Shown here one piece after another: positions 16,173-60,308 of a stretch of 64,000 bases of DNA. The position numbers were made by a program, and so were the translations under genes. The notes beneath the pieces are model-generated. The model made no database searches and was not told the DNA's origin. It was given only the letters and a program-made list of their open reading frames with translations. Each line of letters starts with the position of its first letter. The stretch's first letter is position 1. This DNA comes from an uncultured Spirochaetota bacterium (GTDB taxonomy: Bacteria; Spirochaetota; Brevinematia; Brevinematales; JAOACQ01). The stretch covers positions 384,001 to 448,000 of the forward strand of contig CAVYGN010000002.1 of assembly GCA_963768055.1 (NCBI GenBank). The letters run 5' to 3'.

Positions 16173-16186
16173 TATTAAACCCCTTT

Positions 16187-17977: not shown

Positions 17978-18151
17978 TCAACCTCTTGAATATCAATTGT
18001 TTGATAAATATGTTAGCTTTAAACAGTTAAATAATCAAGCTTAAAATCACCTTATGCGCTTTTCAATTTTCAATCTGCCCGAAGCACTTCTGAATAATTA
18101 TTTGAATTCCCTTTGATCATTGGTTATATTATATAAAAAAAGGAGGCGTTT

Positions 18152-18367
18152 ATGGCCGATGAAATTGAAAAGAAAGATGAATGTCACCATCATCATGGCG
18201 GCGACAAGGGATTCTGGGGCGGGGCTTATTTTTTGACCATTATCGGCGCGGCAGTTTATTTTATAGAACATGCAGCCGGGTTCTGGTCAGGCGTGTTCGG
18301 TGTGCTGAAAGCACTAATATGGCCTGCGCTGGTTATCTATAAGGTCCTCGAATCGCTGAAAATGTAA
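18152..18367 (+). CDS. small membrane protein
   Basis: Strong AGGAGG RBS; two hydrophobic helices; N-terminal CHHHH. Confidence 0.75.
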   Translation: MADEIEKKDECHHHHGGDKGFWGGAYFLTIIGAAVYFIEHAAGFWSGVFGVLKALIWPALVIYKVLESLKM

Positions 18368-18377
18368 CCGCAGGCCC

Positions 18378-19124
18378 TTGTTGAATTCATGTCGCATCCG
18401 TTATTACGGCGACCTTAAAGAATTGCTGTCCAGGGAAAAAAGAGAGAGGGGAGAGGTATTGTTCACCGGCTCACCCGGGATAAAGGATATTGTCGAAGCG
18501 GATGGAATTCCTCATACCGAAGTGGGCCTTATCATAGCAAACGGCGAGTCTGCCGGCTGGGCATACAGATTGAAGGATCGCGATTACTGTTCAGTTTACC
18601 CTTACTTTAGCAATATAGAGGTAGAGGGCGTGAGCCGGGTGCTCGAACCTGAATATCCAAGGGGAAGATTCGTAATTGACGTACACCTCGGAAAGCTCTG
18701 CAAATATTTAAGAATGCTGGGCTTAGATGCAGCCTTCAACCCCGAATGGAGCGATTCGGAACTGATTGACATATCGAATGACGAATTCAGGTTTATTCTC
18801 ACCCGGGATAGGGGAATTTTAAAAAACGGAGCTACCCGCTACGGCTGCCTTATCAGATCGATCTATCCCCATAATCAGATCCGCCAGGTGCTTGACCGTT
18901 TCGATCTTTATAACAGGCTTTATCCGCTGGTCAGGTGTCTTAAGTGCAACGGAGATATAATTAGCGTCCCGACCCTTTCAGTGATTGACGGCATCCCTGA
19001 GAATACAAAAAAATATTATCAGGATTTCTACAGGTGTTCTTCATGCGGCACCGTATACTGGCGCGGCTCCCACTATGAAAACATGAAAAAAATGATCGAA
19101 CACTTTTTTGCCCTGAATTTATAA
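18378..19124 (+). CDS. Mut7-C ubiquitin-like + PIN RNase + Zn-ribbon protein
   Basis: GIPHTEVG, FVIDVHLGKLCKYLRMLG, ILTRDRG, RCLKCNG, CSSCGTVYWRGSH. Confidence 0.92.
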   Translation: MLNSCRIRYYGDLKELLSREKRERGEVLFTGSPGIKDIVEADGIPHTEVGLIIANGESAGWAYRLKDRDYCSVYPYFSNIEVEGVSRVLEPEYPRGRFVIDVHLGKLCKYLRMLGLDAAFNPEWSDSELIDISNDEFRFILTRDRGILKNGATRYGCLIRSIYPHNQIRQVLDRFDLYNRLYPLVRCLKCNGDIISVPTLSVIDGIPENTKKYYQDFYRCSSCGTVYWRGSHYENMKKMIEHFFALNL

Positions 19125-26982: not shown

Positions 26983-27046
26983 TAACTGTCCTCCTTAACT
27001 TTATTATAATGGAAAAAGGGGAAAACGAAAAGAATCGAGATGGGAA

Positions 27047-27097
27047 TTCACAGGGAGGCACAGCGGAGAGCGGGCAGTCCTTCGTGTGCCTTAGCGG
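27047..27097. repeat. degenerate palindromic repeat (family C-like)
   Basis: TTCACAGGGAGGCACAG..TGTGCCTTAGCGG with an AGGCACA/TGTGCCT inverted repeat; loosely resembles the ACCGCAGAG/CACAGAG repeats at 52.5-55.0 kb. Confidence 0.35.
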
Positions 27098-27102
27098 CCC
27101 CC

Positions 27103-27993
27103 CTACGCATGGGGATGGAATTCATCGTAATCCTTTTTTAGTTTATCGATAGTCAGGTGGGTGTAAACCTGGGTTGTGGAAAGGCTTTCATGGCCGAGCA
27201 TTTCCTGGATGACGCGGATCCCGGCCCCGTTCTGAAGGAGGTGGGTGGCGAAGGTATGCCGCAGCGTATGGGGCGAGACATGCTTCTGGATCGAGAGTTC
27301 GCCGATATAGCGGTTTATGATATAGCGCACCATCCTGTCCTGCAGCCTTTTCCCGCTCTTGGTCAGGAAAAGCGCGCCGGTATCCCCCGTAGCGGGGGCA
27401 AGTTCCCTCCTGCAGGCGAGGTATTTTTTCATCATCAGCAGGGCCTGTTGTCCCGTCGGGACTACCCGCTGCTTATTGCCCTTCCCGGTGACCAGGAGTA
27501 CGCCCTCCCCGAAATCGATTTCCCCCAGGTTCAGGCCCGTGAGTTCGGAAACGCGCAGGCCGCTGGCGTATAAAAGCATTACTACGGTCTTATTCCTTAT
27601 CGAGAGGGCGCCGGATTCCGGGATGCTGGCTATGAGGTCCGACATTTCGGATTTCTCGAGAACCGCCGGAAGCCTCTTGTCTTTTTTCGGGGAGGAAATA
27701 AGGGCCGCGGGGTTCGTTATGACCGCGTCCGTCCTGACAAGATATTTAAAGAGAGACTTAAGCGACGCGATCTTCCGCTCAATCGAAGCCGGTTTGAGGC
27801 CGCTTTTCCCCAGGCCCGATATATAGATATGAAGAAGCTTATAGGTTATCTTGCCGGCTTCTGAAATCGATTGCCCGGCCAGGAACGAAAGGAATTCCTC
27901 GAGGTCTTTTTTGTACGATATTATAGTATTCCCGGAACAGCCCTTTTCATAGCGCAGGTAAGTCAGGAAACTATCGATATTCTTATCTATCAT
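27103..27993 (-). CDS. xerC: tyrosine recombinase XerC
   Basis: LYASGLRVSEL, GKGNKQR, HTLRHTFATHLL, LGHESLSTTQVYTH, C-terminal HPHA. Confidence 0.88.
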   Translation of the reverse strand: MIDKNIDSFLTYLRYEKGCSGNTIISYKKDLEEFLSFLAGQSISEAGKITYKLLHIYISGLGKSGLKPASIERKIASLKSLFKYLVRTDAVITNPAALISSPKKDKRLPAVLEKSEMSDLIASIPESGALSIRNKTVVMLLYASGLRVSELTGLNLGEIDFGEGVLLVTGKGNKQRVVPTGQQALLMMKKYLACRRELAPATGDTGALFLTKSGKRLQDRMVRYIINRYIGELSIQKHVSPHTLRHTFATHLLQNGAGIRVIQEMLGHESLSTTQVYTHLTIDKLKKDYDEFHPHA

Positions 27994-27995
27994 TG

Positions 27996-29219
27996 TTAAA
28001 GGAAATCAACCCTGTAAATAATGCCGATGCTGAAAAACAGGTCCTCGAAAGAGGAGGTCTGACCGCCGCCGGAGTAATATATTTCATAATAGTGCCCTAT
28101 ATCGTAGGTAAATCTTGCCGACAATCCGATATCCCCGAAGAAATAAGTCGCCCCGATTATCAGGGGGGGAAAATCATAAGTTATGTACCGGCTGTTATTG
28201 GTAGTGTAGAGCTGGTTGGTCTTTTCAAACCAGGGGCAAAACTGCAAAGATAATTCGAGGTTATGGTTCGGATTCCAGATAACTACGAACGACATTGGAA
28301 AAGCCGTATAACCGGTCGAAGAGTACATCGAACTATTCCCGTTATTTCCGTAGTCGCCATTTGTCCCGACGTACTCGCTCTGTACATAAATCCCGAAACC
28401 AATAGCGAAGGCCCCTTCCCACCATGGGAGATAATAGGAACCGGTCAAAGAAACATAGCCGGGTATATCCACAGAACCGAAGTTTCTCATGTACCAGTCG
28501 TAATACGGCAGGCCGGGCAGCCCGTTCATGTTGAAATCGAGCCGTATGTCCCAGTAGCGCAGGACGACCCCGATTTCCATTGAAGTTATGGGCCATTGAC
28601 CGTTATAACTGTTTGTATTATTTTGATCCTCACTTAAAATAAAGTTTTTGCTGCCTAAATCGGTGACAAAGCCGAACCGCGTATACATTTGCCTTTTAAT
28701 ATTTACCTTCTCGGTTTCATAAAGGGTTTCGCGGATCTTTTTGACCCTCGCCTCGCTTTCCGCGGTCATCTCCGGCAGGACCTCTTTAATCTTTCTTACT
28801 ATATCGGAGGCCATTGCGTCTATAGTGTCGAATATATCCGCGGTGACCGTACCGGTGTAAACCCGGCGCATTTTAAGCCTGTTCTCAAGGACGTCGAAAA
28901 CAACGGCGGTGACGAAAAGCCTGTCGTTTTCAACATAATAACTGCCGTAAACTATCACATCTGCTTTTGCATCATGGCCGATCGATACAGCATTGCTGTA
29001 TTCGGCTACGGTGTTGGTCGACAGACCTGGCGACACCCTGAAATTATCCTGCTTGCCAAGCTCCGAAGAAATCGTTTTCTGCAGAATGAGCTCTATATTC
29101 CTGTTGGGGTTCTTGGACTCGTTTTCCCATGCAGCGACGAAAATGTTCCACTTTTCTGCGGGAAAAGCCTTTGCGGTGCATAGCATCAATAAAACTATTA
29201 TAAAACATCTAAAATTCAT
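27996..29219 (-). CDS. exported protein: TolB-N/CsgG-like domain plus probable beta-barrel
   Basis: Signal peptide (start 29219); ADVIVYGSY motif; aromatic-rich C-terminal half ending IIYRVDFL. Confidence 0.6.
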   Translation of the reverse strand: MNFRCFIIVLLMLCTAKAFPAEKWNIFVAAWENESKNPNRNIELILQKTISSELGKQDNFRVSPGLSTNTVAEYSNAVSIGHDAKADVIVYGSYYVENDRLFVTAVVFDVLENRLKMRRVYTGTVTADIFDTIDAMASDIVRKIKEVLPEMTAESEARVKKIRETLYETEKVNIKRQMYTRFGFVTDLGSKNFILSEDQNNTNSYNGQWPITSMEIGVVLRYWDIRLDFNMNGLPGLPYYDWYMRNFGSVDIPGYVSLTGSYYLPWWEGAFAIGFGIYVQSEYVGTNGDYGNNGNSSMYSSTGYTAFPMSFVVIWNPNHNLELSLQFCPWFEKTNQLYTTNNSRYITYDFPPLIIGATYFFGDIGLSARFTYDIGHYYEIYYSGGGQTSSFEDLFFSIGIIYRVDFL

Positions 29220-30411
29220 ATTCGAACCCCAGGCCCAGCTGGACAATAGTATATCTAAAAGAGCTGAAATTCATCCCGTTTGTCAACTGATAATTATCTG
29301 AAGTCCCCACTGCATACCTCATATAGTCAAGGCTTATCCTGAATCTCGGCACGACCTCGAAATTAAATAGAATATCAATGTAAGGCGGACCGGCCGAATC
29401 GCTGAAATTACTGTTATAATTCGAAATGCCCTGCTGATTGAAATTCAAGGTCCCGTTTCCCGGGGTTGGCAGCCCCGAGGCAAACCGTATATAATAAGAC
29501 TTGGTAATATTGAATTGTAAAACCGGGCATAATGTAAAATTCTGGATATCGCCCGAAGGAAAATTTAAATCCGTACCGGCCATTAATCCGCCGGAAGTGA
29601 AATGGGTATTGAAATAATCAAATTCCAGTCCCAGGATGATGAGGCTGCCGAATATTCCGTAACCCGCCCCGGCATTAAGGCATGACGTATAGCCGAAACC
29701 CCCTGTGGTCAAGATGCCGCCCCCAAGCCAGGCGTTCCAGGCGTACCAGCTCAAAATCCCCTCGGCCCGGACCGACGGCCCTCCGCCGGCCAGGTTGGTG
29801 CCGACGTTGAGCCCTCCGCCTCCGCCGTTAGAGGAGTTACCCTGCTGCTGGTAAGATAATTGCGAGTTTAACTCTGTGAAACCGGGGGTCAGGCGGACGC
29901 TTATCGACGGGTTGGTGGATTCAAATTCGCTCACCCTTACCTTGACTAATTCGACGGTTTTGAGCTCCTCTTTTTTCATCATCGGGTAATCCGCTTTCAG
30001 TATATCGAGCATTTTCCGGGCTGCAGGCTGGATCGATGCAATTACGTCCCTTCTTCCGAACTCTATGCTGTTATCGAGTAGTTCCAATTTTTCGCCGGTT
30101 TTTTCGCCTGTTTTGTAAAGCCCCACCCTGTAATTCAATCCGTTCGTATCGATTATTATAATCACACTTGCGTTGATCGAATTTACCGAAAGGGTTTCAA
30201 GGTCGGATTTGTCTCCGGAAAACAGCTGTATATTGGAATCGCTGTCGGCCAGTGAGAGCAATGTCTCCCGAAGAATTTTGCATATGCCCGCGTATTCCCC
30301 CTTTTTATCGAAAGAAACACCTATCTTCTGGGCGTAATAATCATTGTCGGCAAAGGCAGGGACAATTACGGCAACCAAAAATACGGCTGCTGAAATAAAT
30401 TTTAAAATCAC
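29209..30411 (-). CDS. probable outer-membrane beta-barrel protein
   Basis: Signal peptide AFA-D; alternating aromatic/Gly strands; C-terminal LGLGFEYEF. Confidence 0.6.
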   Translation of the reverse strand: MILKFISAAVFLVAVIVPAFADNDYYAQKIGVSFDKKGEYAGICKILRETLLSLADSDSNIQLFSGDKSDLETLSVNSINASVIIIIDTNGLNYRVGLYKTGEKTGEKLELLDNSIEFGRRDVIASIQPAARKMLDILKADYPMMKKEELKTVELVKVRVSEFESTNPSISVRLTPGFTELNSQLSYQQQGNSSNGGGGGLNVGTNLAGGGPSVRAEGILSWYAWNAWLGGGILTTGGFGYTSCLNAGAGYGIFGSLIILGLEFDYFNTHFTSGGLMAGTDLNFPSGDIQNFTLCPVLQFNITKSYYIRFASGLPTPGNGTLNFNQQGISNYNSNFSDSAGPPYIDILFNFEVVPRFRISLDYMRYAVGTSDNYQLTNGMNFSSFRYTIVQLGLGFEYEF

Positions 30412-49026: not shown

Positions 49027-50108
49027 TCGAATATGAAAATCTGGGAAGGGTCAATTCCCCGTTTTTTGATGAATATAGAAAGAGTTTTTCGGATACGCTT
49101 GAAGGCGGATGGTATATACTGGGCAAAAACGTTGACAAATTTGAGCATGAATTCGCGGAGTACTGCGGGGCAAAGCACTGCGTCGGCGTCGCTTCGGGGC
49201 TTGACGCACTTTCCCTGTCCCTTAAAGCCCTGGGCCTCGCCCCGGGCGACGAAGTTATTGTGGCTTCGAACGCTTACATTGCCGCAATTCTTTCCATTCT
49301 TCATAACGGTCTTGTCCCGGTCCTTGTCGAACCTGATATCCGGACATATAATATCGATCCGGTTAAAATTGAAGAGAAAATTTCTCCTAAAACCAGGGTA
49401 ATAATGCCCGTCCATCTGTACGGAAAGATCTGCCCGATGATCCCGATCATGAAAATCGCGGAGAAGCACGACCTTAAAGTGATCGAAGACTGCGCCCAGG
49501 CACATGGCGCAGCTCTTGAAGGCCGCAAGGCGGGTTCTTTCGGTCACATCAACGCATTCAGCTTTTATCCCACGAAAAATTTAGGGGCCCTGGGCGACGC
49601 CGGCGCTGTCACTACCGACGATGAAAACCTTGCTTCCACAGTCCGGAAACTCCGTAATTACGGTTCGAGTGTAAGGTATTGCAACGAACTTGCAGGTTAT
49701 AATTCAAGGCTGGATGAAATTCAGGCCGGTTTTTTGAGTATTAAGCTGAAAAGCCTCGATGCGATCAATTCCCATAAAAGAAAACTGGCAGGGTTATATC
49801 TTGAGGGCTTGAAGAAAGATTTTATAATGCCCGCAGTATCCGAAGGATTTTACGACGTCTATCATATATTCAATATCCGGCATGAAGCCAGGGACAGTTT
49901 AAGGGAATATCTTAAAAAAAACGGGGTTTTGACCGACATACATTACCCCGTTTCACCCAACAGACAGCCTGCCATGAAGGGAATAATAGACCATGAGCCT
50001 TATCCGTTATCCGAAGAAATTCATGCCACGACCCTGAGCCTCCCGGTATCCTATTATCATGACGAAAGAGATATATCCAGGGTGATAGAAATCCTCAATA
50101 AATTTTAA
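49023..50108 (+). CDS. fdtB: DegT/DnrJ/EryC1/StrS aminotransferase (FdtB-like)
   Basis: [40 protein letters not shown]. Confidence 0.88.
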
Positions 50109-50121
50109 CCGGCTGGAAAAA

Positions 50122-50955
50122 ATGAAGCCGATACGTTTTTCCATCGTTACAGTGGTTTTTAACGCCGCGAAAACCCTCGAACAAACCATAAAAAGCGTAA
50201 TTTCACAGGAATTTGAAAACTACGAGTATATAATAATCGACGGCGGATCGACTGATGGGACTCTCGATATTATAAAAAAATATGAAAATAATATCGCCTT
50301 CTGGTCAAGTGAAAGCGACAAAGGCATTTATGACGCCATGAATAAAGGCGCCTCGGCGGCAACGGGCGAGTTTTTAAACATGCTTAACTCGGGCGATTCA
50401 TACGCCCACCCCGGGGTTCTTAAAACTTACGACAGGGTTTTAAGCGAACATCCTGATGCGGTCTGGGCTTACGGACTGGCCGCCGTACACAGGGAGGACG
50501 GCACTCCTTATGAAAGGGAGGGCCGTCAGGCGATATTCGGCGACGGCAGGAACGACCGGTTTTATATGAGCCACATCTGCCACCAGGCTGTCTTTTATAA
50601 AAAGTCCCTCCACGATGAATTCGGTCCCTACGATCTTTCTTTCCCGATATCTGCGGACCATCACTTCATGCTGAAAATCTACCATAACGGGCATTTTAAG
50701 CCGGCAGAGATCGGCGAGATAACAATACGCTTCAGGAAAGGCGGCGCAAGCGAAACCCCGGGCGTCATAGAGGACGAAAAAAGGGCCGAGGACGCTGTAA
50801 TTGGAAAATCCTTAAGGAACGAATTCTCGGCTGTAAAAAAAAGGCTTAAGCTTGCGTTAAAGAATTTTAAAGACAGGCATGGATGGGCGGCTTCACTTCT
50901 TAAATTTTTCCGGAGGCTAAAAATAGCCGTCAGGCCTCATAATAAAGGGTTCTGA
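50122..50955 (+). CDS. GT2 glycosyltransferase (WfgS-like)
   Basis: SIVTVVFN, IDGGSTDGT, DKGIYDAMNKG, LNSGD, HQA. Confidence 0.92.
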   Translation: MKPIRFSIVTVVFNAAKTLEQTIKSVISQEFENYEYIIIDGGSTDGTLDIIKKYENNIAFWSSESDKGIYDAMNKGASAATGEFLNMLNSGDSYAHPGVLKTYDRVLSEHPDAVWAYGLAAVHREDGTPYEREGRQAIFGDGRNDRFYMSHICHQAVFYKKSLHDEFGPYDLSFPISADHHFMLKIYHNGHFKPAEIGEITIRFRKGGASETPGVIEDEKRAEDAVIGKSLRNEFSAVKKRLKLALKNFKDRHGWAASLLKFFRRLKIAVRPHNKGF

Positions 50956-52431
50956 TTTATCTCTATAACAGCTGAAATCCGAGGGATCGAGCTTATCGAA
51001 AAATGGCTGATAAATATTGCCCCTGTAAATAAATTCAAAGGGTTTCATCCTCATAATTTCACTGGGCAAAAGGACAGGCTTCTTCTGTTTATACCTCGTC
51101 CTCGACATAGCTCCTCCCGGCCCTGAAGTCCGGCTCTCTTCAATTGCTTCCTCTTCTCCGATAAGCCTGGATATGGTTTCGGCGGTCGTATTGTCGGCTA
51201 CCGAAAAATAGACATGGGTCGTGCAGGCGTTGATAATAGATTTTCTCCTGTGTTCCCCGTATAAATAATCGAGCTGAGAAAAATCCTGGACCGCTAGCCA
51301 GGCTGACGCCCCTTTTGAACGGCCGAAGGACAAAAGATTGACAAGGGTCGGAAGCTCGTGAAGAGTCCCCATCTCGTCTATAAGGAGGAAAATCCTCCTG
51401 TCAGGGTCTTCGGGAAACGCGAGTATTCCCCCGCTGATAATGTCGATAAAAAGAGTGAGCATAGGTCTTAGAATGTCCTGCAGGTCGGATTTATTTACAA
51501 CAAAAATAGTATTGTCCTTCCCGTCAGATAGCCAATCCGTTATTGAAAACCCTGCCTCTCCAGTATAAGCCATGTACTTGAAGAATTTTGTGAATTGGGT
51601 CAATGTGGCCATAATCCCGCCTGCCTGTGGGCTGTCCGGGGGAGATAAAAAATTTGCAGCGTTCGAGGAGATTTTATGGATATTTATTCTCGAACCGATT
51701 TCCGCCGGGCCAAGGGAGAGCATCTCGTTAAGCGCCCCGATCGACCCCTTGTTTTCAAGGCGCAGGCAATTAAGCATCGCGGCGAACACTTCGCGGGCGC
51801 CGTCCCTCCAGAATTTTTCATTGTTGCCCGTTTTTCCATGATTGTCCGGTATTACGGAAGCCGCTATGCGTTCCGCCATTACCACCCGGGCCGTCTCATT
51901 TCCCCTGAATTCGCTGTATATATCCCATTTTACGCTTCTTACGTCCAGGGGATTGAAGATGAGATCGTCCTTTTCATTGTAAAACTTTGAGACATAATCC
52001 CCCTTGAAATCATAAACGATCTTTTTGCAAGGCTTACCCCTGCAGGCCATGCTCTCCTTTTTAAGGCCACTCAGGATTTTATAAAAAGAAAGGGTCTTTC
52101 CTACCCCGGGCTTGCCTGTAAAGAAGAACCCCTTGGTCTCCTCTGAAACCGGTATAGGAATACCGCTTAATTCAAGAATTACGCCGCTTTTAAAATTTTT
52201 ATCTATGAATTTGATATATGAATTTTTGTCTCCAATCGCGGCCCCTTTCAGATGCCTGCTTTTCAAACGTCTTCCTGCACGGACTGCCGGAATAATACTT
52301 ATTAAGAGTATGGTCAGGAAAATGCCGGCGAAAACCAGCGCCATGACAAATAAATCACGCTGCACCGGGTTATAGCCCTGGAAGGGGCCGGAAATATTGC
52401 CCATGAAAATCGATGATAATCCCATATGCAA
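50917..52431 (-). CDS. type IV coupling protein, TrwB/TraD-like ATPase
   Basis: N-terminal TM; Walker A FTGKPGVGKT; VYDFKG, FNPLDVRS, FWRDGAR, Walker B LLIDEMG, GRSKG, VQDFSQL..YG, VLLPSEI. Confidence 0.92.
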   Translation of the reverse strand: MHMGLSSIFMGNISGPFQGYNPVQRDLFVMALVFAGIFLTILLISIIPAVRAGRRLKSRHLKGAAIGDKNSYIKFIDKNFKSGVILELSGIPIPVSEETKGFFFTGKPGVGKTLSFYKILSGLKKESMACRGKPCKKIVYDFKGDYVSKFYNEKDDLIFNPLDVRSVKWDIYSEFRGNETARVVMAERIAASVIPDNHGKTGNNEKFWRDGAREVFAAMLNCLRLENKGSIGALNEMLSLGPAEIGSRINIHKISSNAANFLSPPDSPQAGGIMATLTQFTKFFKYMAYTGEAGFSITDWLSDGKDNTIFVVNKSDLQDILRPMLTLFIDIISGGILAFPEDPDRRIFLLIDEMGTLHELPTLVNLLSFGRSKGASAWLAVQDFSQLDYLYGEHRRKSIINACTTHVYFSVADNTTAETISRLIGEEEAIEESRTSGPGGAMSRTRYKQKKPVLLPSEIMRMKPFEFIYRGNIYQPFFDKLDPSDFSCYRDKSEPFIMRPDGYF

Positions 52432-52498
52432 ATCCTTAAAAAAACTGACAATATTTTAATAATTCAAAACTATAATATCAAGAAACAAACGTCGAGCA

Positions 52499-52550
52499 TT
52501 ACCGCAGAGAAACAAAGGGCTTATCCCTGAGCCTGCGAATGGACACAGAG
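52499..52550. repeat. repeat family C copy
   Basis: TTACCGCAGAGAAACAAAGGGC..TCCCTGAGCC..CACAGAG; similar to the copies at 54241 and 54935. Confidence 0.55.
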
Positions 52551-52611
52551 GAAGAGTCCGCAAAGAAAGCAAAGGCCACTGAGATTCAAATTTCTTTATA
52601 TCAATTCAATT

Positions 52612-52640
52612 TTGACAATTATCACATCGTCCAATAGAAT
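52612..52640 (+). promoter_or_regulatory. sigma-70 promoter
   Basis: TTGACA-N17-TAGAAT upstream of the serine hydrolase gene. Confidence 0.7.
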
Positions 52641-52695
52641 ATTTTTTATTATTGTTTGTTATTTCAAATTCTTTAATAAAATATTGGACGGTGTT

Positions 52696-54234
52696 ATGAA
52701 AAAAATCTTTTATTTCCCCGCTATTTCGATTATTTTATTTTATTTTATTGCTTCTTGTTCCTCGGTAAAACCGGGGCAGAAAAGTTATGACTACTATCCC
52801 GGCAACATATGGCGCACATCCACCCCGGAAGCGCAGGGGATGGATTCGGGCCGCCTGGTAAAGATGCTCAATTACATACAATCGACTAACCTGGACATAC
52901 ACAGTATTATTATCATCCGGCATGGATATGTCGTCCTGGAGGCTTACGCGGCGCCTTTCGGAAGGGACGTTCCCCATGTTATTTATTCGTGCACTAAAAG
53001 CATTACATCGGCCCTGATAGGTATCGCCATCAAGGAGGGTTATATAAAAAATACGGATCAAAAGGTGCTGGACTTATTACCTGAAATTAAAGCAAAAAAC
53101 AAGGATAAGTCAAAAGAGGAAATATCTATCGATAACCTGCTGACTATGACATCCGGGCTGGATTGGACTGAATATTATGTATCATATTTCGGCACCAATA
53201 ATTTGAATCAAATGGAAAATTCAAAGAACTGGGTGGAATATGTCATAGACAGGCCTTTAAAAGAAAAGCCCGGCAAAGTTATTAATTATAATTCCGGAGA
53301 TTCTCATCTTTTATCGGCGATATTGTGTAAAACCACTGGCATGAAAACCTCCGAATTCGCGGAAAAGCATTTATTTAAACCGATCGGCATCAATAATTAT
53401 ATATGGCAAACCGATCCGCAGGGCATTAACAACGGAGGAACTGGAATGGCTTTGACCTCTATGGAAATGGCGAAATTCGGCTACCTTTTCTTAAAAAAAG
53501 GCATTTGGAATGGAAACCGGTTAATACCCGCCGGTTGGGTTGAAGCTTCCATGTCCAACCGTATCGATACAAGAAGAAGCCGTTACCCGTCTTTAGGGTA
53601 TAGTTACAAAGGATATGGATACGGATACCAGTGGTGGGAGCTGCCGTTCGGAGGATTTTCAGCGAAAGGGGCATTCGGTCAATATATCATGGTCATGCCT
53701 GAAAGAGACATGGTAGTAGTGTTTACTTCAGAAGATGGGGATTCGCCAGAAGTTTTAACTGAAGCGTTTATAAACAGTTCTATTATTTCAAACGGTAGTG
53801 TCCCTGAAAACCCGGATAAACAGGTTGAATTGTCGGCGGCGATCGGTAATTTCAATAATCCTGTAAACGGTAAGGAGTTTTTTTTCCCGGAAAACGCCTG
53901 GGAAATATCAGGTAAAAGATTTATAGGTACGAACGCCTCAGGGAATTTAACTGCCGTTATTCTTAGTTTCAGCGGGACAAACGAATGTATTTTAGAAACT
54001 GATTCACAGGGTAAAAATTCTAAAATATCAGTCGGATTAGACGGGAAATACAGGGATTTTTCACGCGGCAAATGGACAAGTATAAATACTTTCACCATAG
54101 AATTTTACTGGCCATGGATTTCCAGCAGTAAAGGCATATTTACATTACAATTTGATAAAAAAATTCTTAAAATGCAATTAGAATGGGCTACCCCCGGATT
54201 GAAGCAGGAGTTTACAGGGAAAATGGAAGAATAA
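52696..54234 (+). CDS. serine hydrolase lipoprotein (class C beta-lactamase/NylB-like superfamily)
   Basis: Start MKKIFY (52696), lipobox IASC; SxxK (SCTK), LLTMTSG, YNS, YGYQWW, AKGAFGQYI. Confidence 0.88.
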   Translation: MKKIFYFPAISIILFYFIASCSSVKPGQKSYDYYPGNIWRTSTPEAQGMDSGRLVKMLNYIQSTNLDIHSIIIIRHGYVVLEAYAAPFGRDVPHVIYSCTKSITSALIGIAIKEGYIKNTDQKVLDLLPEIKAKNKDKSKEEISIDNLLTMTSGLDWTEYYVSYFGTNNLNQMENSKNWVEYVIDRPLKEKPGKVINYNSGDSHLLSAILCKTTGMKTSEFAEKHLFKPIGINNYIWQTDPQGINNGGTGMALTSMEMAKFGYLFLKKGIWNGNRLIPAGWVEASMSNRIDTRRSRYPSLGYSYKGYGYGYQWWELPFGGFSAKGAFGQYIMVMPERDMVVVFTSEDGDSPEVLTEAFINSSIISNGSVPENPDKQVELSAAIGNFNNPVNGKEFFFPENAWEISGKRFIGTNASGNLTAVILSFSGTNECILETDSQGKNSKISVGLDGKYRDFSRGKWTSINTFTIEFYWPWISSSKGIFTLQFDKKILKMQLEWATPGLKQEFTGKMEE

Positions 54235-54240
54235 CCCCGA

Positions 54241-54276
54241 TCACCGCAAAAACGAAGGACACGGAGTCCCTGAACC
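54241..54276. repeat. repeat family C copy
   Basis: TCACCGCAAAAACGAAGGACACGGAGTCCCTGAACC, an imperfect direct repeat of 52499-52533. Confidence 0.55.
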
Positions 54277-54341
54277 AATAAACTTTGATTATTTCTTTAT
54301 TAGAGTTTAACATGTAATAAGACGGTCTCAAAGAGGTTATT

Positions 54342-54926
54342 ATGGGATTGGCGGCGGAAAAACAGAAACAGAAGTATTCTTATGCGGATTATCTGGGCTG
54401 GCCGGATGAAGAACGCTGGGAATTGATAGACGGGGTTGCCTTCGATATGAGCCCGGCGCCGTTTATCGAGCATCAAAGAATTGTGGTACTATTAAGTAAA
54501 ATTATAGCGACATACCTTGAAGGTAAGAAGTGTGAAGTTTTTGTTTCCCCTGTTGATGTTTATATGCCTGATCGGAAAGGCGATTTGGATGATATGATTG
54601 AAAATGTGGTACAGCCTGATGTTATTGTCGTTTGCGATCCGGAAAAAATAGAAAGACGGGGCATTCGGGGCGCACCAGATCTGGTCATTGAGGTCCTCTC
54701 GCCGAATACATCTAAAAGGGACTGGAACGAAAAATTCAATCTTTATGAAAAAACCGGGGTCAAAGAATACTGGATTGTCGATCCCTTGGGAAGGGTTATC
54801 CATCAGTATGTCTCTAAAAGTAACCGCTTTGAACTGATTAAAATGCACGAGGATAAAAGCACTGTCGAATCGCCCTCGATCGAGGGCTTGAAAGTGGAAT
54901 TATCAAAAATATTCCCGGGGCAATGA
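54342..54926 (+). CDS. Uma2-family (PD-(D/E)XK) endonuclease
   Basis: WELIDG..MSPAP..HQ, VQPD, GAPDLVIEVLSP, GVKEYWIVDP; own TTGATT-N17-TAACAT promoter at 54285-54313. Confidence 0.93.
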   Translation: MGLAAEKQKQKYSYADYLGWPDEERWELIDGVAFDMSPAPFIEHQRIVVLLSKIIATYLEGKKCEVFVSPVDVYMPDRKGDLDDMIENVVQPDVIVVCDPEKIERRGIRGAPDLVIEVLSPNTSKRDWNEKFNLYEKTGVKEYWIVDPLGRVIHQYVSKSNRFELIKMHEDKSTVESPSIEGLKVELSKIFPGQ

Positions 54927-54934
54927 CGGGGATA

Positions 54935-54959
54935 ACCGCAGAGACGGCTCCGCGGTGAA
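54935..54959. repeat. repeat family C hairpin; possible bidirectional terminator
   Basis: ACCGCAGAG-acgg-CTCCGCGGT (8/9 stem) between the convergent Uma2 and relaxase genes. Confidence 0.55.
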
Positions 54960-54971
54960 GTCCCAGTCCCC

Positions 54972-57734
54972 TTACATGCCAATTCCCCACTGCATGGACC
55001 TGCTCCTTTCAAGCGATTTTTCGTATCTGATCGACCGGCATTCTCTTTCGACGGCTTTTATCTTTTCAACAGCCATGAATTTGTTATTTTCATAAGAGAG
55101 TTTAAAATCGTTAAAATTTATCTCTTCCATTTTAGTTTTCACATATTCTATATTGTCTGTATAGATCCTCATTCCAGGTTTCAGAGATCTCAGGCAATTC
55201 TCGATTTCAGGCCCCAAATAAGGCCGTCCGGCACCGGCCCTTAGATCCAGAAGGACGTTTTTTCCTCGTTCCGAGATCGAATCCAGGCTCATAGCGGCGT
55301 AGGCATGATCGAAAAAGTTATGCTTTTTATAGTCGAATTCAATCGATCGCTGATTATCCAGAACGGCCCTTATTTTATTTTCTCCGATTTCTTTGACTAT
55401 AGCGCATTCGCCCCTCTTTATTCCCGTTTCGGCGGCGCTTTTTAAAAAAACAATCCTGTCTCCTCTGCCGAAATATGTTTCACGAAGTTCTTCAACCCTG
55501 TATTTCTTATAATCCTTCGAAGGGTTAATGACCGCATGACGGCGTGAAGAATCTATCGCCACTTTGACCGAAGAGGTTCCGGGATCGACATCAATAACGG
55601 TGCCGGTCTCACCCTTTTTCATACCCCTGACATTGTTAAGTGCGCTTATCCGTTGGCCCTTTTCGTAATTTCCAGAATCCTTTTTTAGACCAGCCTGACC
55701 CCCAAAGACGTCTCCGCTTCTTACAGCGATCCTTGCCGAATTTTCGACAGTTCCCGCCTTTTCCAGGTTCTCCCTGATAAAAAGATTCAATTCATTCTTC
55801 TCCCTCCAGGACCTTGTAAGGACCACGCTGTTTTGCGGGTCTTTTAAATAATCCCTGCAAATCGAGTACTTCAATTCCCCAGTTTTATAACCGGTTTTCA
55901 GCGATGCATTTTTTTCAAGCTTATACAGCGCACTTTCAGTTATTAAAGAGCTGTGTTCCCTGAGTTTCAGCAATTCATGCTCTGGAATTTTATAATGCCT
56001 TTCATGGCCGGTCACGTCGCCTGCAATATCGAATTTATTCAAGGCAAGGCAAAAATTTCTGAAATCCCTTCCCGCTTCCCTTCCCGTCCGATAAAATTCA
56101 CCGGTAAACACGATCTTGCTGTTCGCAAAGTCGGCCCTATCCATGATCTTTCCGATTTTCACAGGTCCGATAAGGTCAAGCCTGTCGGCTATATAAAGAG
56201 TCTTTTCACCGTTTTCCCGCCGGTTTTGAGATAAAAAGCGGTCGGGAGACAATACTTCAATATTGACCGCCGCTTCAAGGCTCCTTGCGTTCCTGCCGTC
56301 AGGGGCGATCAGTACCGTGTCATACCCCTTTTCCCTGTAGGCTCTTATTAATGCCGGAAGCAGAAAATAACGGTTCCCTGCCCCTTCGCTTTTCAGCAAA
56401 TCCATCCTGTCGCCCGATATCAGAAGTTCCCGGAAGGTTTTATTTTGTTCAGGAGTGAAGAAATAATCCGCGGCAGCTTTGCAGGCCCCATCCTCTTTGT
56501 ATTCGGGTTTGAAATCCTGCCTCCATTTCAGGGCATGCAGCAGGTTGTTCTTTTCGGTTTCAATTATGCCGGGGGTTGTATAAGCCGTATGGTATCCGCA
56601 CCCGATCCTGGCCTGCTTTTCTAATATTATCAGGTTCCTGTTATTATAAAAAGCCTTTTCAAGTTCTTTAATATCGAATTCCGCTTTTGAAAGACTGAGG
56701 GAATGGCTTAAAATATCCTTTTTACTGAAGAAACCCCTGGCCTGAGTAACCTCGTCAAGCGCCATTTGTATATATTTTTCAGGAGAATTCTCATGAATAT
56801 TTTTAAAGAGTTCTATCCCCCTGGATTCAGGTATGTCCCTTTCAGATTTTCCCATACCGGCCAGTTCTTTTTTCCATTCTGAAATTATTTTATCAAGGTC
56901 GACAGCCTTTTTCGGTTTTCTGGTATAAAGCATAATCGCTTTTTCAAGCCCCTTTGTGTTCCCTTTATTGATCTCATCCGCCGGGTTTATGCCCTTTGCC
57001 TCGAAATACCTCTTCAGTTTTTCTTTCATGTTCACAGTCCGCTTGGAAAATAAATCCCTGATTTTATTGTCCACTCCTTCAATTTGAGCGTAACCCTCTT
57101 TCGAGATGCCGGCGTCAAAACCATGCGATCTCATGGAACGGCATAATTGATTTTCATAAATCCGGCAGAGAAGTTTTCTGCAATCATAAACGTTCCTGTT
57201 TTCCATGGCCTTGAAGGAGCCCCCGGGAAGGCCTGTAATATTGAAAATTATTAAATGCGTATGCAATTGAGGATCGAGTTCCCTGCTTGTATTGTGTTCG
57301 AACTCTGTGTAAAGCATGTTGCCGGTACAGATTCGTTCTATTCCGGCCCTGCCATGATCGATCCTCGCAAGTATCAAATCCTTTTCAATATAACCGGCGA
57401 CACATTTCACTGCTTCCCTATGGGCTTCTATAATTTTTCTCCTGTCATCGGGGTTTTGACTTAAATAACACGAAAGGGCCACGCTTTTATCGGGTGAAAG
57501 GACTACATCCCGTCCGGGGTTATGTTTACCCGATATTCCAGGACGCACTAACATTTCTCCGTTTATATTTTTCCCGGCAACAATATTTTCAAAGGCTCCC
57601 CCTGAGATAAATTTCAGGCCCAGTTTATTCGATATTTCACCGCTGAATTCAACTTTCGGGGCGTTTTCACCAAGGTAATAATTATCCATTTCATATTTCT
57701 TCAATGTATTGTACATTTTGGAGATAGTCAGCAT
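54972..57734 (-). CDS. MOBF (TrwC/TraI-like) relaxase with degenerate helicase domain, 920 aa
   Basis: Start MLTISK at 57734 after AGGAG; YEMDNYY, DVVLSPDKSV, HREAV, FEHNTSRELDPQLHTHLIIFN, FSKRT; helicase-like C-terminal region with eroded motifs. Confidence 0.92.
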   Translation of the reverse strand: MLTISKMYNTLKKYEMDNYYLGENAPKVEFSGEISNKLGLKFISGGAFENIVAGKNINGEMLVRPGISGKHNPGRDVVLSPDKSVALSCYLSQNPDDRRKIIEAHREAVKCVAGYIEKDLILARIDHGRAGIERICTGNMLYTEFEHNTSRELDPQLHTHLIIFNITGLPGGSFKAMENRNVYDCRKLLCRIYENQLCRSMRSHGFDAGISKEGYAQIEGVDNKIRDLFSKRTVNMKEKLKRYFEAKGINPADEINKGNTKGLEKAIMLYTRKPKKAVDLDKIISEWKKELAGMGKSERDIPESRGIELFKNIHENSPEKYIQMALDEVTQARGFFSKKDILSHSLSLSKAEFDIKELEKAFYNNRNLIILEKQARIGCGYHTAYTTPGIIETEKNNLLHALKWRQDFKPEYKEDGACKAAADYFFTPEQNKTFRELLISGDRMDLLKSEGAGNRYFLLPALIRAYREKGYDTVLIAPDGRNARSLEAAVNIEVLSPDRFLSQNRRENGEKTLYIADRLDLIGPVKIGKIMDRADFANSKIVFTGEFYRTGREAGRDFRNFCLALNKFDIAGDVTGHERHYKIPEHELLKLREHSSLITESALYKLEKNASLKTGYKTGELKYSICRDYLKDPQNSVVLTRSWREKNELNLFIRENLEKAGTVENSARIAVRSGDVFGGQAGLKKDSGNYEKGQRISALNNVRGMKKGETGTVIDVDPGTSSVKVAIDSSRRHAVINPSKDYKKYRVEELRETYFGRGDRIVFLKSAAETGIKRGECAIVKEIGENKIRAVLDNQRSIEFDYKKHNFFDHAYAAMSLDSISERGKNVLLDLRAGAGRPYLGPEIENCLRSLKPGMRIYTDNIEYVKTKMEEINFNDFKLSYENNKFMAVEKIKAVERECRSIRYEKSLERSRSMQWGIGM

Positions 57735-57753
57735 AGGAACTCCTGCAAAATAA

Positions 57754-57787
57754 ATTATATTATACCAATATATTGTTGTCAATATAT
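57754..57787 (-). promoter_or_regulatory. perfect-consensus sigma-70 promoter of the relaxase with overlapping inverted repeats
   Basis: Minus strand TTGACA (57782-77)-N17-TATAAT (57759-54); IR ATATATTG-ttgt-CAATATAT at 57768-57787. Confidence 0.8.
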
Positions 57788-57808
57788 ATCCGGTAATATT
57801 ATTCAAGA

Positions 57809-57928
57809 TGTCATTCCGTGCGGAGCGTTTATCCTGTAAGGGAGAAATCTTCTTTCGTATGATCAACCCAAATCAGGATTTCTCGCCGTCCAATCCCTAT
57901 TAAAGGGGCCGGACTTCACGAAATGACA
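57809..57928. repeat. palindromic repeat family B, full copy
   Basis: TGTCATTCCGTG / CACGAAATGACA (11/12); internal GAGAAATC/GATTTCTC stem; shares AGCGTTTATC with the 38038 copy. Confidence 0.85.
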
Positions 57929-57990
57929 ATTGAGAGAAATATTCCACAAACCGTCCCCTGCTGCCGATAATTATGCTTCAGGAAAATAAT

Positions 57991-58827
57991 ATGAAAATAA
58001 AATCATACGCCAAGATCAACCTTTTCCTCGATATTACCGGAATAGATGTAAAAGACGGTTATCACTACCTGGATAGTCTATTCCAGGAAGTTACCCTCCA
58101 TGACGATATCGAATTAAAAAAATCTCAAACAGACAAAGTGGTTTTCACCGGAGCCGATATACCCCCCGAGAACACTGTAAATAAGGCGTTAAAACTTTTT
58201 AAAGAGAAATTCGGCATTAAAGAATCCTTCATTATAACCATCAGAAAAAGTATTCCGGCCGGGGCAGGCCTGGGCGGTGGAAGTTCGAACGCAGCAGCCG
58301 TTTTAACGGCCCTTTCCGGATTATATAGAATAAAACCGGGGGATATAATCGGGATCGGCGAAAAAATCGGGAGCGATGTCCCGTTTTTTTTTAAAGGCGG
58401 ATTATGCCGGGTAAAGGGAAAGGGAGAAATTGTACAGAAAATGGATCTCAGACTCAAACAAATTTGTTTTATTATTATATATCCCGGTAAACCGGTTTCG
58501 ACAAAATGGGCTTATTCCCTCATTAATGAATATGGCCGAAGCAGAATAAGGGAAAATATTCTTCACCCCCCGGAAGCTGATATTGATTTTCTTAAAAAAA
58601 TAGTGTATAATAAATTCCAGCTTTTTGTTTTAAATAGGTGTCAGGAACTTGCTGACATAAAAACACAACTGGACGACTTTCTTGATTCGCGCCTCTCTTT
58701 TATGAGCGGCAGCGGGTCATCGCTGGTGTACGTTTATAGCGAGAAAGAAAAAGCACGGCGTTTGCTTACTGAAGAGGAAAAAAGATTCGGCTATAATGCT
58801 TTTTTTTGTGAACCTTATTACAGATAA
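57991..58827 (+). CDS. ispE: 4-diphosphocytidyl-2-C-methyl-D-erythritol kinase
   Basis: AKINLFLDI, GYHYLDSLF, IPAGAGLGGGSSNAA, IGSDVPFF, MSGSGS. Confidence 0.95.
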   Translation: MKIKSYAKINLFLDITGIDVKDGYHYLDSLFQEVTLHDDIELKKSQTDKVVFTGADIPPENTVNKALKLFKEKFGIKESFIITIRKSIPAGAGLGGGSSNAAAVLTALSGLYRIKPGDIIGIGEKIGSDVPFFFKGGLCRVKGKGEIVQKMDLRLKQICFIIIYPGKPVSTKWAYSLINEYGRSRIRENILHPPEADIDFLKKIVYNKFQLFVLNRCQELADIKTQLDDFLDSRLSFMSGSGSSLVYVYSEKEKARRLLTEEEKRFGYNAFFCEPYYR

Positions 58828-58891
58828 TTAAGGCGTTTAGGCGTACGCTTAGATGTACAGTTTTTAATTTTCATCAGGAGGATAAACTTTT

Positions 58892-59146
58892 ATGGAAATC
58901 ACAGACATCAGAATCAAGAAAGTAGAAGGGGAAAACAAATTAAAGGCGTACGCGTCGATCACTTTTGACGACAGTTTCGTTATTCACAACATCAAGGTTA
59001 TCCAGGGCAATAACGGTCTGTTTATCGCCATGCCTTCCAGAAGGACAAGAAGCGGTGAAATGAAGGATGTAGCCCACCCCATTAATTCCCAATTTAGAGA
59101 AAAAATACAAAATGCTATATTGGAAGCCTATCAGGCTGAACAATAA
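58892..59146 (+). CDS. spoVG: SpoVG nucleic-acid-binding protein
   Basis: [44 protein letters not shown]. Confidence 0.97.
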
Positions 59147-59171
59147 GGCAGTTATTTAAAATGATATAAAT

Positions 59172-59245
59172 TGGGGCGTAGCCAAGCTGGTAAGGCAGCG
59201 GGTTTTGGTCCCGCCATTTCGAGGGTTCGAATCCTTCCGCCCCAG
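59172..59245 (+). tRNA. tRNA-Gln (TTG), CCA not encoded
   Basis: Acceptor stem TGGGGCG/CGCCCCA, D arm GCCAAGCTGGTAAGGC, anticodon arm GCGGG-TTTTGGT-CCCGC, T loop GTTCGAATC. Confidence 0.96.
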
Positions 59246-59280
59246 CGTATTAAAGATATTATTTCCAGTTAATCATAATC

Positions 59281-59307
59281 AGGGTAAAGTACAATTTTCC
59301 CTTTTTT
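59281..59307 (+). terminator. possible weak intrinsic terminator after the tRNA
   Basis: AGGGTAAA..TTTTCCCT imperfect stem followed by a T run. Confidence 0.35.
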
Positions 59308-59339
59308 AGTTTTCTAAAAAAAGATATGGGAGCCTAGAG

Positions 59340-60308
59340 GTGCCGTTTTCCAATATACGCTTGATATCGGGCAGGGCCAATTGGGAATTGGCTAAAAAAA
59401 TATCCGGTTACATCGGTGTAGAGCTTGTAGATGTAATGATAACAGAGTTCGCAGACAGCGAGATATTCGTCCGGATACAGGAGAATGTCCGGGGTAAGGA
59501 CGTTTTTGTAATACAATCAATGTGTAACCCCGCTTACAAAAACATCATGGAACTTCTCATAATTATTGACGCTCTTAGAAGGTCGTCGGCTGAAAGGATC
59601 ACAACCGTTATTCCATATTTCGGATATGCCAGGCAGGACCGTAAAGCCGAACCGAGGGTTCCTATAACGGCAAAGCTGGTTGCCAATTTGCTGACCGTAG
59701 CGGGGACGGACAGGGTCCTGACTTTAGACCTGCATGCGGCTCAAATCCAGGGTTTTTTTGATATACCGGTTGATCATCTATATGCCACTCCGGTATTTCT
59801 TGATACATTAAAGGGTATAAAGAATTTTTCCGATTATGTCGTTGTTTCACCTGACGTCGGCGGGGTTGAAAGATCAAGATTTTTCGCCAGGCAGATAGGG
59901 GCATCCATAGCGATACTCGATAAACGGCGGGCAAGGAAAAATGAAGCCGATGTTCTTCATCTTATAGGCAGTGTCGATGGAATGAATGTATTTATGATAG
60001 ACGATATGATAGACACAGCAGGGACAATAGTAAAAGCCGCAGAATTGCTCAGGAAAAAAAAGGCCAAATCAATCAGCGTGTATTCGACTCATGCGGTTTT
60101 ATCCGGCCCTGCGGCTGAAAGGATAAGGGACTCTAAAATAGACAAGCTTTATCTGACGGATAGTATTCCTACTGATGAGAACAAGAAAAAGATTATGGGG
60201 GATAAACTGGAGGTTCTGTCTGTTTCCGAATTATTCGGACAGGCGATAGAAAGGATACACCTGAATCTGTCGGTCAGTTCCCTTTTTGTTACCGAAAAAA
60301 AAGTATAA
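59340..60308 (+). CDS. prs: ribose-phosphate pyrophosphokinase
   Basis: FADSEI, PYFGYARQDRK, DLHAAQIQGFF, SPDVGG, DDMIDTAGT. Confidence 0.97.
   Translation: MPFSNIRLISGRANWELAKKISGYIGVELVDVMITEFADSEIFVRIQENVRGKDVFVIQSMCNPAYKNIMELLIIIDALRRSSAERITTVIPYFGYARQDRKAEPRVPITAKLVANLLTVAGTDRVLTLDLHAAQIQGFFDIPVDHLYATPVFLDTLKGIKNFSDYVVVSPDVGGVERSRFFARQIGASIAILDKRRARKNEADVLHLIGSVDGMNVFMIDDMIDTAGTIVKAAELLRKKKAKSISVYSTHAVLSGPAAERIRDSKIDKLYLTDSIPTDENKKKIMGDKLEVLSVSELFGQAIERIHLNLSVSSLFVTEKKV

Follow-up and report, generated by a model that had tools for sequence, protein, structure and literature searches.

The relaxase TrwC (MOBF11) and the coupling protein TrwB of plasmid R388 are the nearest solved structures to the products of two genes that we describe here from an uncultured bacterium of the order Brevinematales (Spirochaetota). 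The two genes, which encode a relaxase together with a type IV coupling protein (T4CP), lie in a 64,000-nucleotide stretch of contig CAVYGN010000002.1 (assembly GCA_963768055.1, positions 384,001 to 448,000). This whole stretch is referred to below as the window, and coordinates are those of the window unless another locus is named. The likeness to TrwC extends over an HUH transesterase with tyrosine and three-histidine motifs (1omh, E = 2.2e-25) and a superfamily 1B (SF1B) helicase fold, and that to TrwB over the nucleotide-binding and all-alpha domains (1e9r). A further point of comparison is TraI of plasmids F and R1. In the account given in PMC5422253, a vestigial helicase domain of F TraI that has no Walker motifs binds single-stranded DNA (ssDNA) and carries translocation signal A, which recruits TraI to the secretion system. 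Integrative and mobilizable elements (IMEs) carry a relaxase with or without a T4CP, and the pair resembles them in gene content, both proteins being encoded but no mating-pair apparatus (PMC3158045). Finally, the archaeal Ced and Ted systems consist of chromosomal, conjugation-derived genes for host DNA transfer, the bacterial counterparts of which are said in PMC9905601 to belong to mobile elements.

The Brevinematales pair departs from each of these systems. Unlike in R388, the helicase motifs of the relaxase have all been lost, the T4CP has one transmembrane helix instead of two, the relaxase gene precedes the T4CP gene with no trwA-like accessory gene, and the pair is chromosomal, syntenic and, on our reading, vertically inherited, with no type IV secretion system (T4SS) nearby. 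The relaxase shares with F/R1 TraI a helicase-fold domain that has neither Walker A nor Walker B, but TraI has a second, active helicase domain, whereas here the vestigial domain is the only one. IMEs differ in that the Brevinematales locus shows no recombinase, no att repeats, one position in three genomes and a housekeeping-like level of divergence. What the Ced and Ted systems retain, as set out in PMC9905601, is the channel together with the pilus and a VirB4-like ATPase, a relaxase being absent, whereas the pair described here is the opposite half of the machinery, relaxase plus T4CP. We read the pair as an anciently acquired TrwC/TrwB-type module that is fixed, under selection, functional, vertically inherited and maintained by its host in Brevinematales, and we assign this reading a probability of about 0.72. 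That an old acquisition turned into a pair of host genes is suggested by the shared chromosomal site, the housekeeping-like rate of evolution, the purifying selection, the host-like codon use and the conserved promoter. The features of the pair in the window are as follows.

54972-57734, minus strand: MOBF (TrwC-type) relaxase gene, 920 amino acids (aa) from the ATG at 57734, stop included
56835-57734, minus strand: HUH transesterase domain of the relaxase, residues 1-300
55155-56459, minus strand: vestigial SF1B (RecD2-like) helicase domain of the relaxase, approximately residues 426-860, motifs I-VI all degenerate
54975-55154, minus strand: C-terminal helical tail of the relaxase, residues 861-920, with helices at 862-915 in the model
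50917-52425, minus strand: TrwB/TraD-type T4CP gene, 502 aa from the likely ATG at 52425, stop included (open reading frame [ORF] 50917-52431, 504 aa, TTG start)
52291-52347, minus strand: the T4CP's one strong transmembrane helix (residues 27-45), called by a hydropathy scan
57754-57782, minus strand: relaxase promoter TTGACA-17-TATAAT, a sigma-70 consensus match, followed by AGGAG and the ATG
52453-52481, minus strand: candidate T4CP promoter TTGATA-17-TAAAAT, a 10/12 consensus match alone

A scan of genome contigs for the relaxase clade yielded two related loci, L001 and L002, both from uncultured Brevinematales assemblies. The window, L001 and L002 have a common gene order, namely, ftsH-tilS-pth-L25-prs-spoVG-ispE, relaxase, variable cargo, T4CP, variable glycosyltransferases and murB. 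The pair was found at the same ispE-murB site, in the same order and in the same orientation, in 2/2 related loci, and in this small sample its presence did not vary. Conservation of the pair at the ispE locus, which the first-pass annotation of the window had named as a check, was thus borne out. In L001, nothing lies between the two genes, which are 56 bp apart on one strand, and this adjacent arrangement is probably the ancestral operon. They are separated in the window by ~2.5 kb that carries a Uma2 gene and a hydrolase gene on the opposite strand and in L002 by ~6 kb that carries genes for a GGDEF protein, gapdh, two nitroreductases, a GGDEF-CBS protein and a PAP2 protein. On the other side of the relaxase gene, ispE adjoins it in L001 and is one ORF apart from it in L002.

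Pairwise protein identity across the three genomes was 59-64% for the relaxase and 65-69% for the T4CP, set against 69-72% for ispE, 63-66% for tilS, 69% for murB and 91-94% for prs, pth and ftsH. Because synonymous sites were saturated (proportion of synonymous differences [pS], 0.74-0.80 by the Nei-Gojobori method), the ratio of nonsynonymous to synonymous substitution rates (dN/dS) could only be bounded. The corresponding nonsynonymous proportion (pN) was 0.21-0.26 for the relaxase, 0.20-0.21 for the T4CP and 0.19-0.23 for tilS, and the sole relaxase pair short of saturation gave a dN/dS of 0.08. Within the relaxase, pN rose from 0.16-0.18 in the transesterase domain to 0.22-0.36 in the dead helicase domain and 0.31-0.44 in the tail, the fastest part, all of these values lying well below pS. 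A dN/dS near 1, which the earlier annotation had offered as the mark of decay, was therefore not what we found; pN values of 0.20-0.26 against a pS of 0.74-0.80 instead indicate purifying selection. Among the full-length copies seen, 5 relaxases and 6 T4CPs, none has an interruption in the 920-aa or the 502-aa reading frame. The relaxase and T4CP genes evolve at the pace of neighboring housekeeping genes under purifying selection.

The base composition of the two genes, judged host-like by eye in the first-pass annotation, proved to be so by both composition and codon use. Their GC contents are 0.434 (relaxase) and 0.463 (T4CP), with a window mean of 0.442 (standard deviation, 0.031). In codon use, they are among the genes closest to the window average, at percentiles 0 and 9 of 55 genes, which is partly an effect of their length.

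The relaxase promoter was the sole 12/12 match among 36 promoter-like sites in 50000-59400. It is kept in the relatives, as TTGACA-17-TATAAT in L001 and TTGACA-17-TATACT in L002. Since homologues begin MLTISKMY and the promoter sits inside the longer ORF, the start codon of the relaxase is most likely the ATG at 57734 rather than the TTG at 57866, and the right end of the module, previously placed at 57928, moves inward accordingly. In all three species, AT-rich CAATAT/ATATTG palindromes overlap this promoter, either at its −35 hexamer or in its spacer (window 57766-57775; L001 ~9940-9965; L002 ~9945-9960). The motif is no commoner in the window than chance predicts, although the palindromes could still serve as an operator or a relaxase-binding site.

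The relaxase ORF (54972-57866, minus strand) matched Pfam TrwC (6.4e-53) and AAA_30 (2.3e-08) and scored 173 bits with the NCBIfam MobF model (NF041492), for which the cutoff is 100. Residues 1-300 matched TrwC 1omh in a phmmer comparison (3.6e-26), in which Y19 and Y20 stood opposite TrwC residues 26 and 27. Y14 lies at the first tyrosine motif, its match to one or the other of TrwC Y18/Y19 being ambiguous by one column. Y14, Y19-Y20, H147, R151, D154, H158 and H160 are invariant in the relaxase clade, and the H..HTH metal site is kept. An AlphaFold2 model of the relaxase built from 106 sequences had a pLDDT of 87.8 and a pTM of 0.78, and in Foldseek comparisons the N-terminal domain gave target-normalized TM-scores (TMt) of 0.81-0.83 against TrwC relaxase-domain structures. 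As judged from its sequence, the protein is predicted to retain the chemistry of nicking and covalent attachment. The statement that the relaxase is intact, with its tyrosine and HUH motifs, was thus right for the nicking domain and wrong for the whole protein, in which every C-terminal SF1B helicase motif has been lost.

Walker A reads SEGAGNRY in place of GxAGxGKT, Walker B reads ADRLD in place of VDExS, and the GDxxQ, RQ, SQG and TR motifs are likewise gone. The active helicase of a MOBF relaxase is therefore missing. We compared the helicase motif columns in 25 relaxase sequences, comprising 7 from the clade, two of them fragments, and 18 from outside it. Walker A and Walker B were lost in 5/5 full-length clade relaxases, and motifs III to VI were lost in 7/7 when the two fragments were included, whereas DE, GDxxQ and RQ were kept in 18/18 nonclade relatives and the other motifs were kept in 17 to 18 of them. 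Death of the helicase is thus a shared derived character of a small clade, since the motifs are lost inside it and kept in its nonclade relatives. The helicase fold itself persists in the model, which matched RecD2 (3gpl, TMt of 0.52), the translocation-signal domain of TraI (4l0j, TMt of 0.55) and F TraI (5n8o).

Beyond the dead helicase domain, the relaxase ends in a short tail. In each of the five full-length relaxases of the clade, the last three residues are I-G-M (four GIGM and one EIGM; window 54975-54990 and P0004-P0007), and many distant relatives have short tails of a similar kind, such as EIGM, GFGMGM or EMGL. The pattern G[ILVMF]G occurs within the last 8 residues in 12/106 aligned sequences and in 73/265 of the relaxases collected. 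The tail may be a conserved C-terminal signal.

The product of the second gene matched Pfam TrwB_AAD_bind (2.2e-73, model positions 3-369 of 387), TraG-D_C (4.4e-28) and T4SS-DNA_transf (1.2e-21), and its nucleotide-binding and all-alpha domains matched TrwB 1e9r in a phmmer comparison (2.1e-31). Walker A (GKPGVGKT), Walker B (LLIDE) and the RSK motif are intact, and the corresponding residues (GxPGxGKT, DE and RSK) are invariant in 12 aligned T4CPs. The earlier description of a TrwB/TraD-like ATPase with intact Walker motifs was therefore sound. The membrane anchor has a different form. A stop codon lying in frame, two codons upstream of the TTG, excludes a longer N terminus, and the two-helix membrane domain with a periplasmic loop that is characteristic of VirD4-type T4CPs was absent, as judged from the hydropathy scan and predicted start codons. 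The same scan found one strong helix in 4/6 clade T4CPs, a weaker possible first helix in the other two (P0124, which agrees with the L001 T4CP in length and contig, and P0125) and two helices ~65-70 residues apart in 3/6 outgroup T4CPs. A predicted complex of T4CP residues 55-502 with relaxase residues 426-920 scored 0.00 (mark, 0.32), which speaks neither for nor against binding.

Close relatives of either protein are few. A word-indexed search with the relaxase gave 411 relatives at an E value of ≤0.001 among 7999 scored candidates. Four of these are close, at 64, 57, 55 and 43% identity, and the next is at 27%. When 1.84 billion cluster representatives were searched exhaustively with a profile, 12,174 matches were returned, among which the clade consisted of the window protein, P0007 and the C-terminal fragments P0228 and P0244, with the score dropping from 1570 to 445 bits at P0229. 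Public protein sets thus hold approximately seven clade relaxase sequences, and the next relatives, at ≤29% identity, keep active helicase motifs in those examined. The T4CP has six close relatives at 49-69% identity, followed by a drop to 36%. The best plasmid-borne relatives are at 24.5% (relaxase; Granulicella plasmid) and 34% (T4CP; Desulfosarcina plasmid). The longest contig given for relaxase P0007 and that given for T4CP P0127 both measure 2,744,431 bp, which makes it very likely that the pair is present in a fourth genome.

In trees of the two families, of which the T4CP tree was a quick version only, the relaxase and T4CP clades were each monophyletic and isolated, on stems of 1.28 and 1.19 substitutions per site, respectively. 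The member on the 2.74-Mb contig was basal to the window, L001 and L002 in both trees.

Around the pair, the locus is ordinary chromosome. The interval from 50917 to 57928 holds four genes, the T4CP and relaxase genes on the minus strand and, between them on the plus strand, the hydrolase and Uma2 genes, which the first-pass annotation does not mention, and so the module is not contiguous. Several statements of that annotation about the locus held up: the relaxase gene is upstream of the T4CP gene, and a GT2 (family 2) glycosyltransferase gene and ispE form the flanks. The neighbors and the intervening genes are as follows.

50122-50955: GT2 glycosyltransferase gene, left flank, overlapping the T4CP stop by 39 bp
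52612-54234, plus strand: beta-lactamase-fold serine hydrolase gene (Pfam Beta-lactamase, 1.7e-32), cargo outside the conserved pair
54342-54926, plus strand: Uma2 nuclease-fold protein gene (Pfam Uma2, 3.3e-35), cargo outside the conserved pair
57973-58827, plus strand: ispE, right flank, divergent from the relaxase gene (TIGR00154, 162 bits against a cutoff of 139)

Beyond ispE lie spoVG, tRNA-Gln, prs, L25, pth, tilS and ftsH, and the remainder of the window carries such genes as fliL/M/N, dnaK/dnaJ, murB, gapdh and those for ABC transporters. Pfam scans, run on 55 ORFs of the window, detected no element-type integrase, transposase, rep or mating-pair/T4SS gene, in agreement with what had been noted before; the sole tyrosine recombinase in the window is of the XerC/D type and lies 23 kb away (27103-27993). 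No recombinase of the kind that an IME or an integrative and conjugative element (ICE) would carry is present between the GT2 gene and ispE, and the spacer between the relaxase gene and ispE contains only ORFs of 28 and 31 aa as possible accessory genes. Flanking direct repeats had also been reported to be absent, and none of the direct repeats in 49500-59500, considered as candidate att sites, convincingly brackets the interval, all being ≤26 nucleotides long, mostly 73-91% identical and at chance level. T4SS and integrase genes were likewise absent within 10 kb of the relatives' loci (two loci of 22 kb each). The ORFs downstream of the T4CP gene in L001 are glycosyltransferase-like or without family, none being T4SS-like.

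How might such a pair work? In the mechanism that we propose, the relaxase would nick a specific chromosomal site and stay bound to the 5′ end. The dead helicase domain would act as an ssDNA clamp and docking surface, as does the vestigial helicase domain of F TraI, while unwinding would be left to a host helicase. The relaxase-ssDNA complex would then be fed to a membrane-anchored T4CP hexamer, which would pump the strand. The output would be host-controlled export or mobilization of chromosomal ssDNA through a channel encoded elsewhere or borrowed. We offer this specific export mechanism tentatively, and the odds lean somewhat against it. A comparison with archaea is also conceivable, though unlikely in our estimate: the helicase-dead relaxase and trimmed coupling ATPase of Brevinematales may be the counterpart of a Ced-type domestication, built from the opposite half of conjugation and processing and moving chromosomal ssDNA for the host. 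In that case, the pair could serve to release DNA, to exchange chromosomal DNA or to interfere with conjugative DNA that enters the cell, and a canonical T4SS might not be needed. A T4SS-independent role has room, since the helicase and the first helix and loop of the T4CP are lost.

The suggestion that the locus might be a domesticated conjugation system stands as far as domestication goes, given the synteny in both related loci, the purifying selection and the lack of integrase and T4SS genes in the 64 kb or within 10 kb of the relatives. Of the functions suggested with it, the pair may have either, Hfr-like mobilization of the chromosome or a repurposed role as nuclease plus translocase. 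The dead helicase and the cargo between the two genes, neither of which the first-pass annotation noticed, both have a bearing on mechanism. A number of observations nevertheless weigh against our reading of a functional, host-maintained pair. MOBF conjugation, going by work on TrwC and TraI, normally requires the relaxase's own helicase, and the loss of the helicase may mean that long-tract transfer has been given up. T4SS genes were not found in the 64-kb window or the two 22-kb loci, where no export route is therefore seen. The VirB10-contacting periplasmic loop is missing from the window T4CP; the membrane domain and periplasmic loops of T4CPs contact VirB10 and are essential in TrwB, according to PMC7434980. 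No origin of transfer (oriT) or nic site was found by alignment of upstream regions, short-word blastn of 15 intergenic pieces from the three loci or palindrome counts. The promoter was the only conserved noncoding block, and the palindrome CAATATATTG of that block occurred about as often as chance predicts (4 matches, 3.4 expected). The topology of the trio, moreover, differs between the two trees on short branches, with the window and L001 grouped for the relaxase (97/94) and L001 and L002 grouped for the T4CP (SH-aLRT, 95), a disagreement that could reflect mere noise, the branches being so short, or could hint that lineages have recombined at this locus. Lastly, the sample is three loci and approximately seven clade sequences, with L001 and L002 metagenome assembled.

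Some of these points would sit well with an ordinary IME, or with the DNA-transfer-and-replication (Dtr) half of an ICE, that is still mobile through a T4SS acting in trans or encoded elsewhere. Modules of a relaxase plus a T4CP occur in mobilizable elements, and both the variable cargo beside and between the two genes and the disagreement of the trees within the trio fit such an element. By the convention described in PMC3158045, moreover, a relaxase cluster without VirB4 is classed as mobilizable. An element of this kind would not, however, be expected to lack an integrase, a transposase and flanking repeats, to keep one site, one gene order and one orientation in 3/3 loci with a divergence equal to that of its flanks, to have fully host-like codon use and to keep both genes conserved even when 2.5 to 6 kb of unrelated genes separates them, and we give this explanation a slim chance. 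Alternatively, the pair might be what is left, in decay and without present function, of an ICE or a plasmid that integrated long ago, in keeping with the loss of all helicase motifs, the loss of the first T4CP transmembrane helix in the window genome, the lack of a T4SS nearby and the splitting of the pair by insertions. This account, already disfavored, has the poorest prospects: the frames are open in all 5 relaxases and 6 T4CPs, pN is far below saturated pS in all domains, the catalytic residues of the transesterase and the ATPase are invariant, the consensus promoter is conserved in three species and even the dead helicase domain is still confidently folded in the predicted model. On the best reading, then, the pair is neither an ICE or IME nor a decaying remnant.

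A functional pair need not be engaged in transfer. It could have been repurposed for a role without a T4SS, either interference with conjugative DNA or phages that arrive, through the nicking of oriT-like sites on foreign DNA or the titration of relaxosomes, or FtsK-like handling of the chromosome. A cytoplasmic or inner-membrane job would suit a pair that lacks both the helicase and the periplasmic region of T4SS contact, on the account of that region in PMC7434980. A candidate defense gene, that for Uma2 (PDC-S03), is inserted between the two genes here. Relaxase-mediated recombination is also conceivable, given the site-specific integration reported for TrwC (PMC3264647) and the gathering of variable cargo on the 3′ side of the relaxase gene. 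The Uma2 cargo, however, is absent at L001 and L002, and PADLOC lends no support, the relaxase having no match and the T4CP having just a weak, P-loop-level match to mad8 (1.5e-13, against 2.2e-73 to TrwB). We also know of no precedent for a relaxase-T4CP pair repurposed for a nontransfer role, and we consider this explanation improbable, though worth keeping in mind. On the same PADLOC results, the reading of the pair as a defense system is kept only as a minor rival. The reading of the pair as an old module turned to host use thus remains the one that we prefer.

The relaxase-T4CP interval and the stretch from the T4CP gene to murB act as a hotspot where genes are inserted and rearranged. 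The gapdh gene is an example, being inside the relaxase-T4CP interval in L002 (13725-14777) and 42 kb away in the window (8375-9424), with products 88% identical. The ORF that separates ispE from the relaxase gene in L002 (9095-9826, minus strand; 243 aa) is found at this place in L002 only and has no Pfam or PADLOC match. In the window, the hydrolase and Uma2 genes are both absent from L001 and L002. The Uma2 gene matched PADLOC defense candidate PDC-S03 at 1.2e-54 and has the most atypical codon use of the four genes in the interval (93rd percentile of 55), and the hydrolase gene has the lowest GC content of the four, at 0.397. No NCBIfam model reached its cutoff with the hydrolase, the best being 3-succinylated cholic acid synthase, at 219 bits against a cutoff of 800. 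The −35 hexamer of an 11/12 promoter match (52612-52640) falls on its listed TTG start, and because of this overlap, the true start is probably downstream, near ATGAAAAAAA at ~52696.

Three other features of the window deserve mention. SpoVG is 100% identical over 84 residues in the three genomes (window 58892-59146; L001 8714-8968; L002 7837-8139), its neighbor ispE being 69-72% identical. The gene for an HATPase_c_3 protein (16187-17977), with a weak match to MzaB (2.5e-4), has as neighbors those for a 452-aa protein without a known family (14814-16172) and for a divergent Mut7-C RNase that carries a ubiquitin-like domain (18378-19124), and the region from 14814 to 19124 could be a defense-like cluster. 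A 938-aa SNF2 helicase encoded in 24166-30411 had strong PADLOC matches of the DpdE/ZorD type (2.7e-145) and scored 437 bits with the NCBIfam model “pilus expression-regulating Snf2,” under its cutoff of 1100; its gene adjoins that for the XerC/D-type recombinase and two family-less ORFs of 416 and 400 aa.

A literature search by title and the start of the abstract, short of a full check, found no vertically inherited, helicase-dead relaxase-T4CP pair and nothing that links Brevinema to a relaxase or Brevinematales to type IV secretion. A relaxase or a coupling protein is usually taken to mark a mobile element, and in genome scans a relaxase without a T4SS is scored as mobilizable. Here, the pair behaves like core genes even after the loss of the helicase that MOBF transfer normally needs, and caution is warranted with automatic mobility calls made from marker genes alone. 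If the pair is functional, it would show that the DNA-processing half of conjugation is open to domestication by bacteria, and it would let one see in a natural setting what a relaxase and a T4CP can achieve when they lack a helicase of their own and perhaps a T4SS as well.

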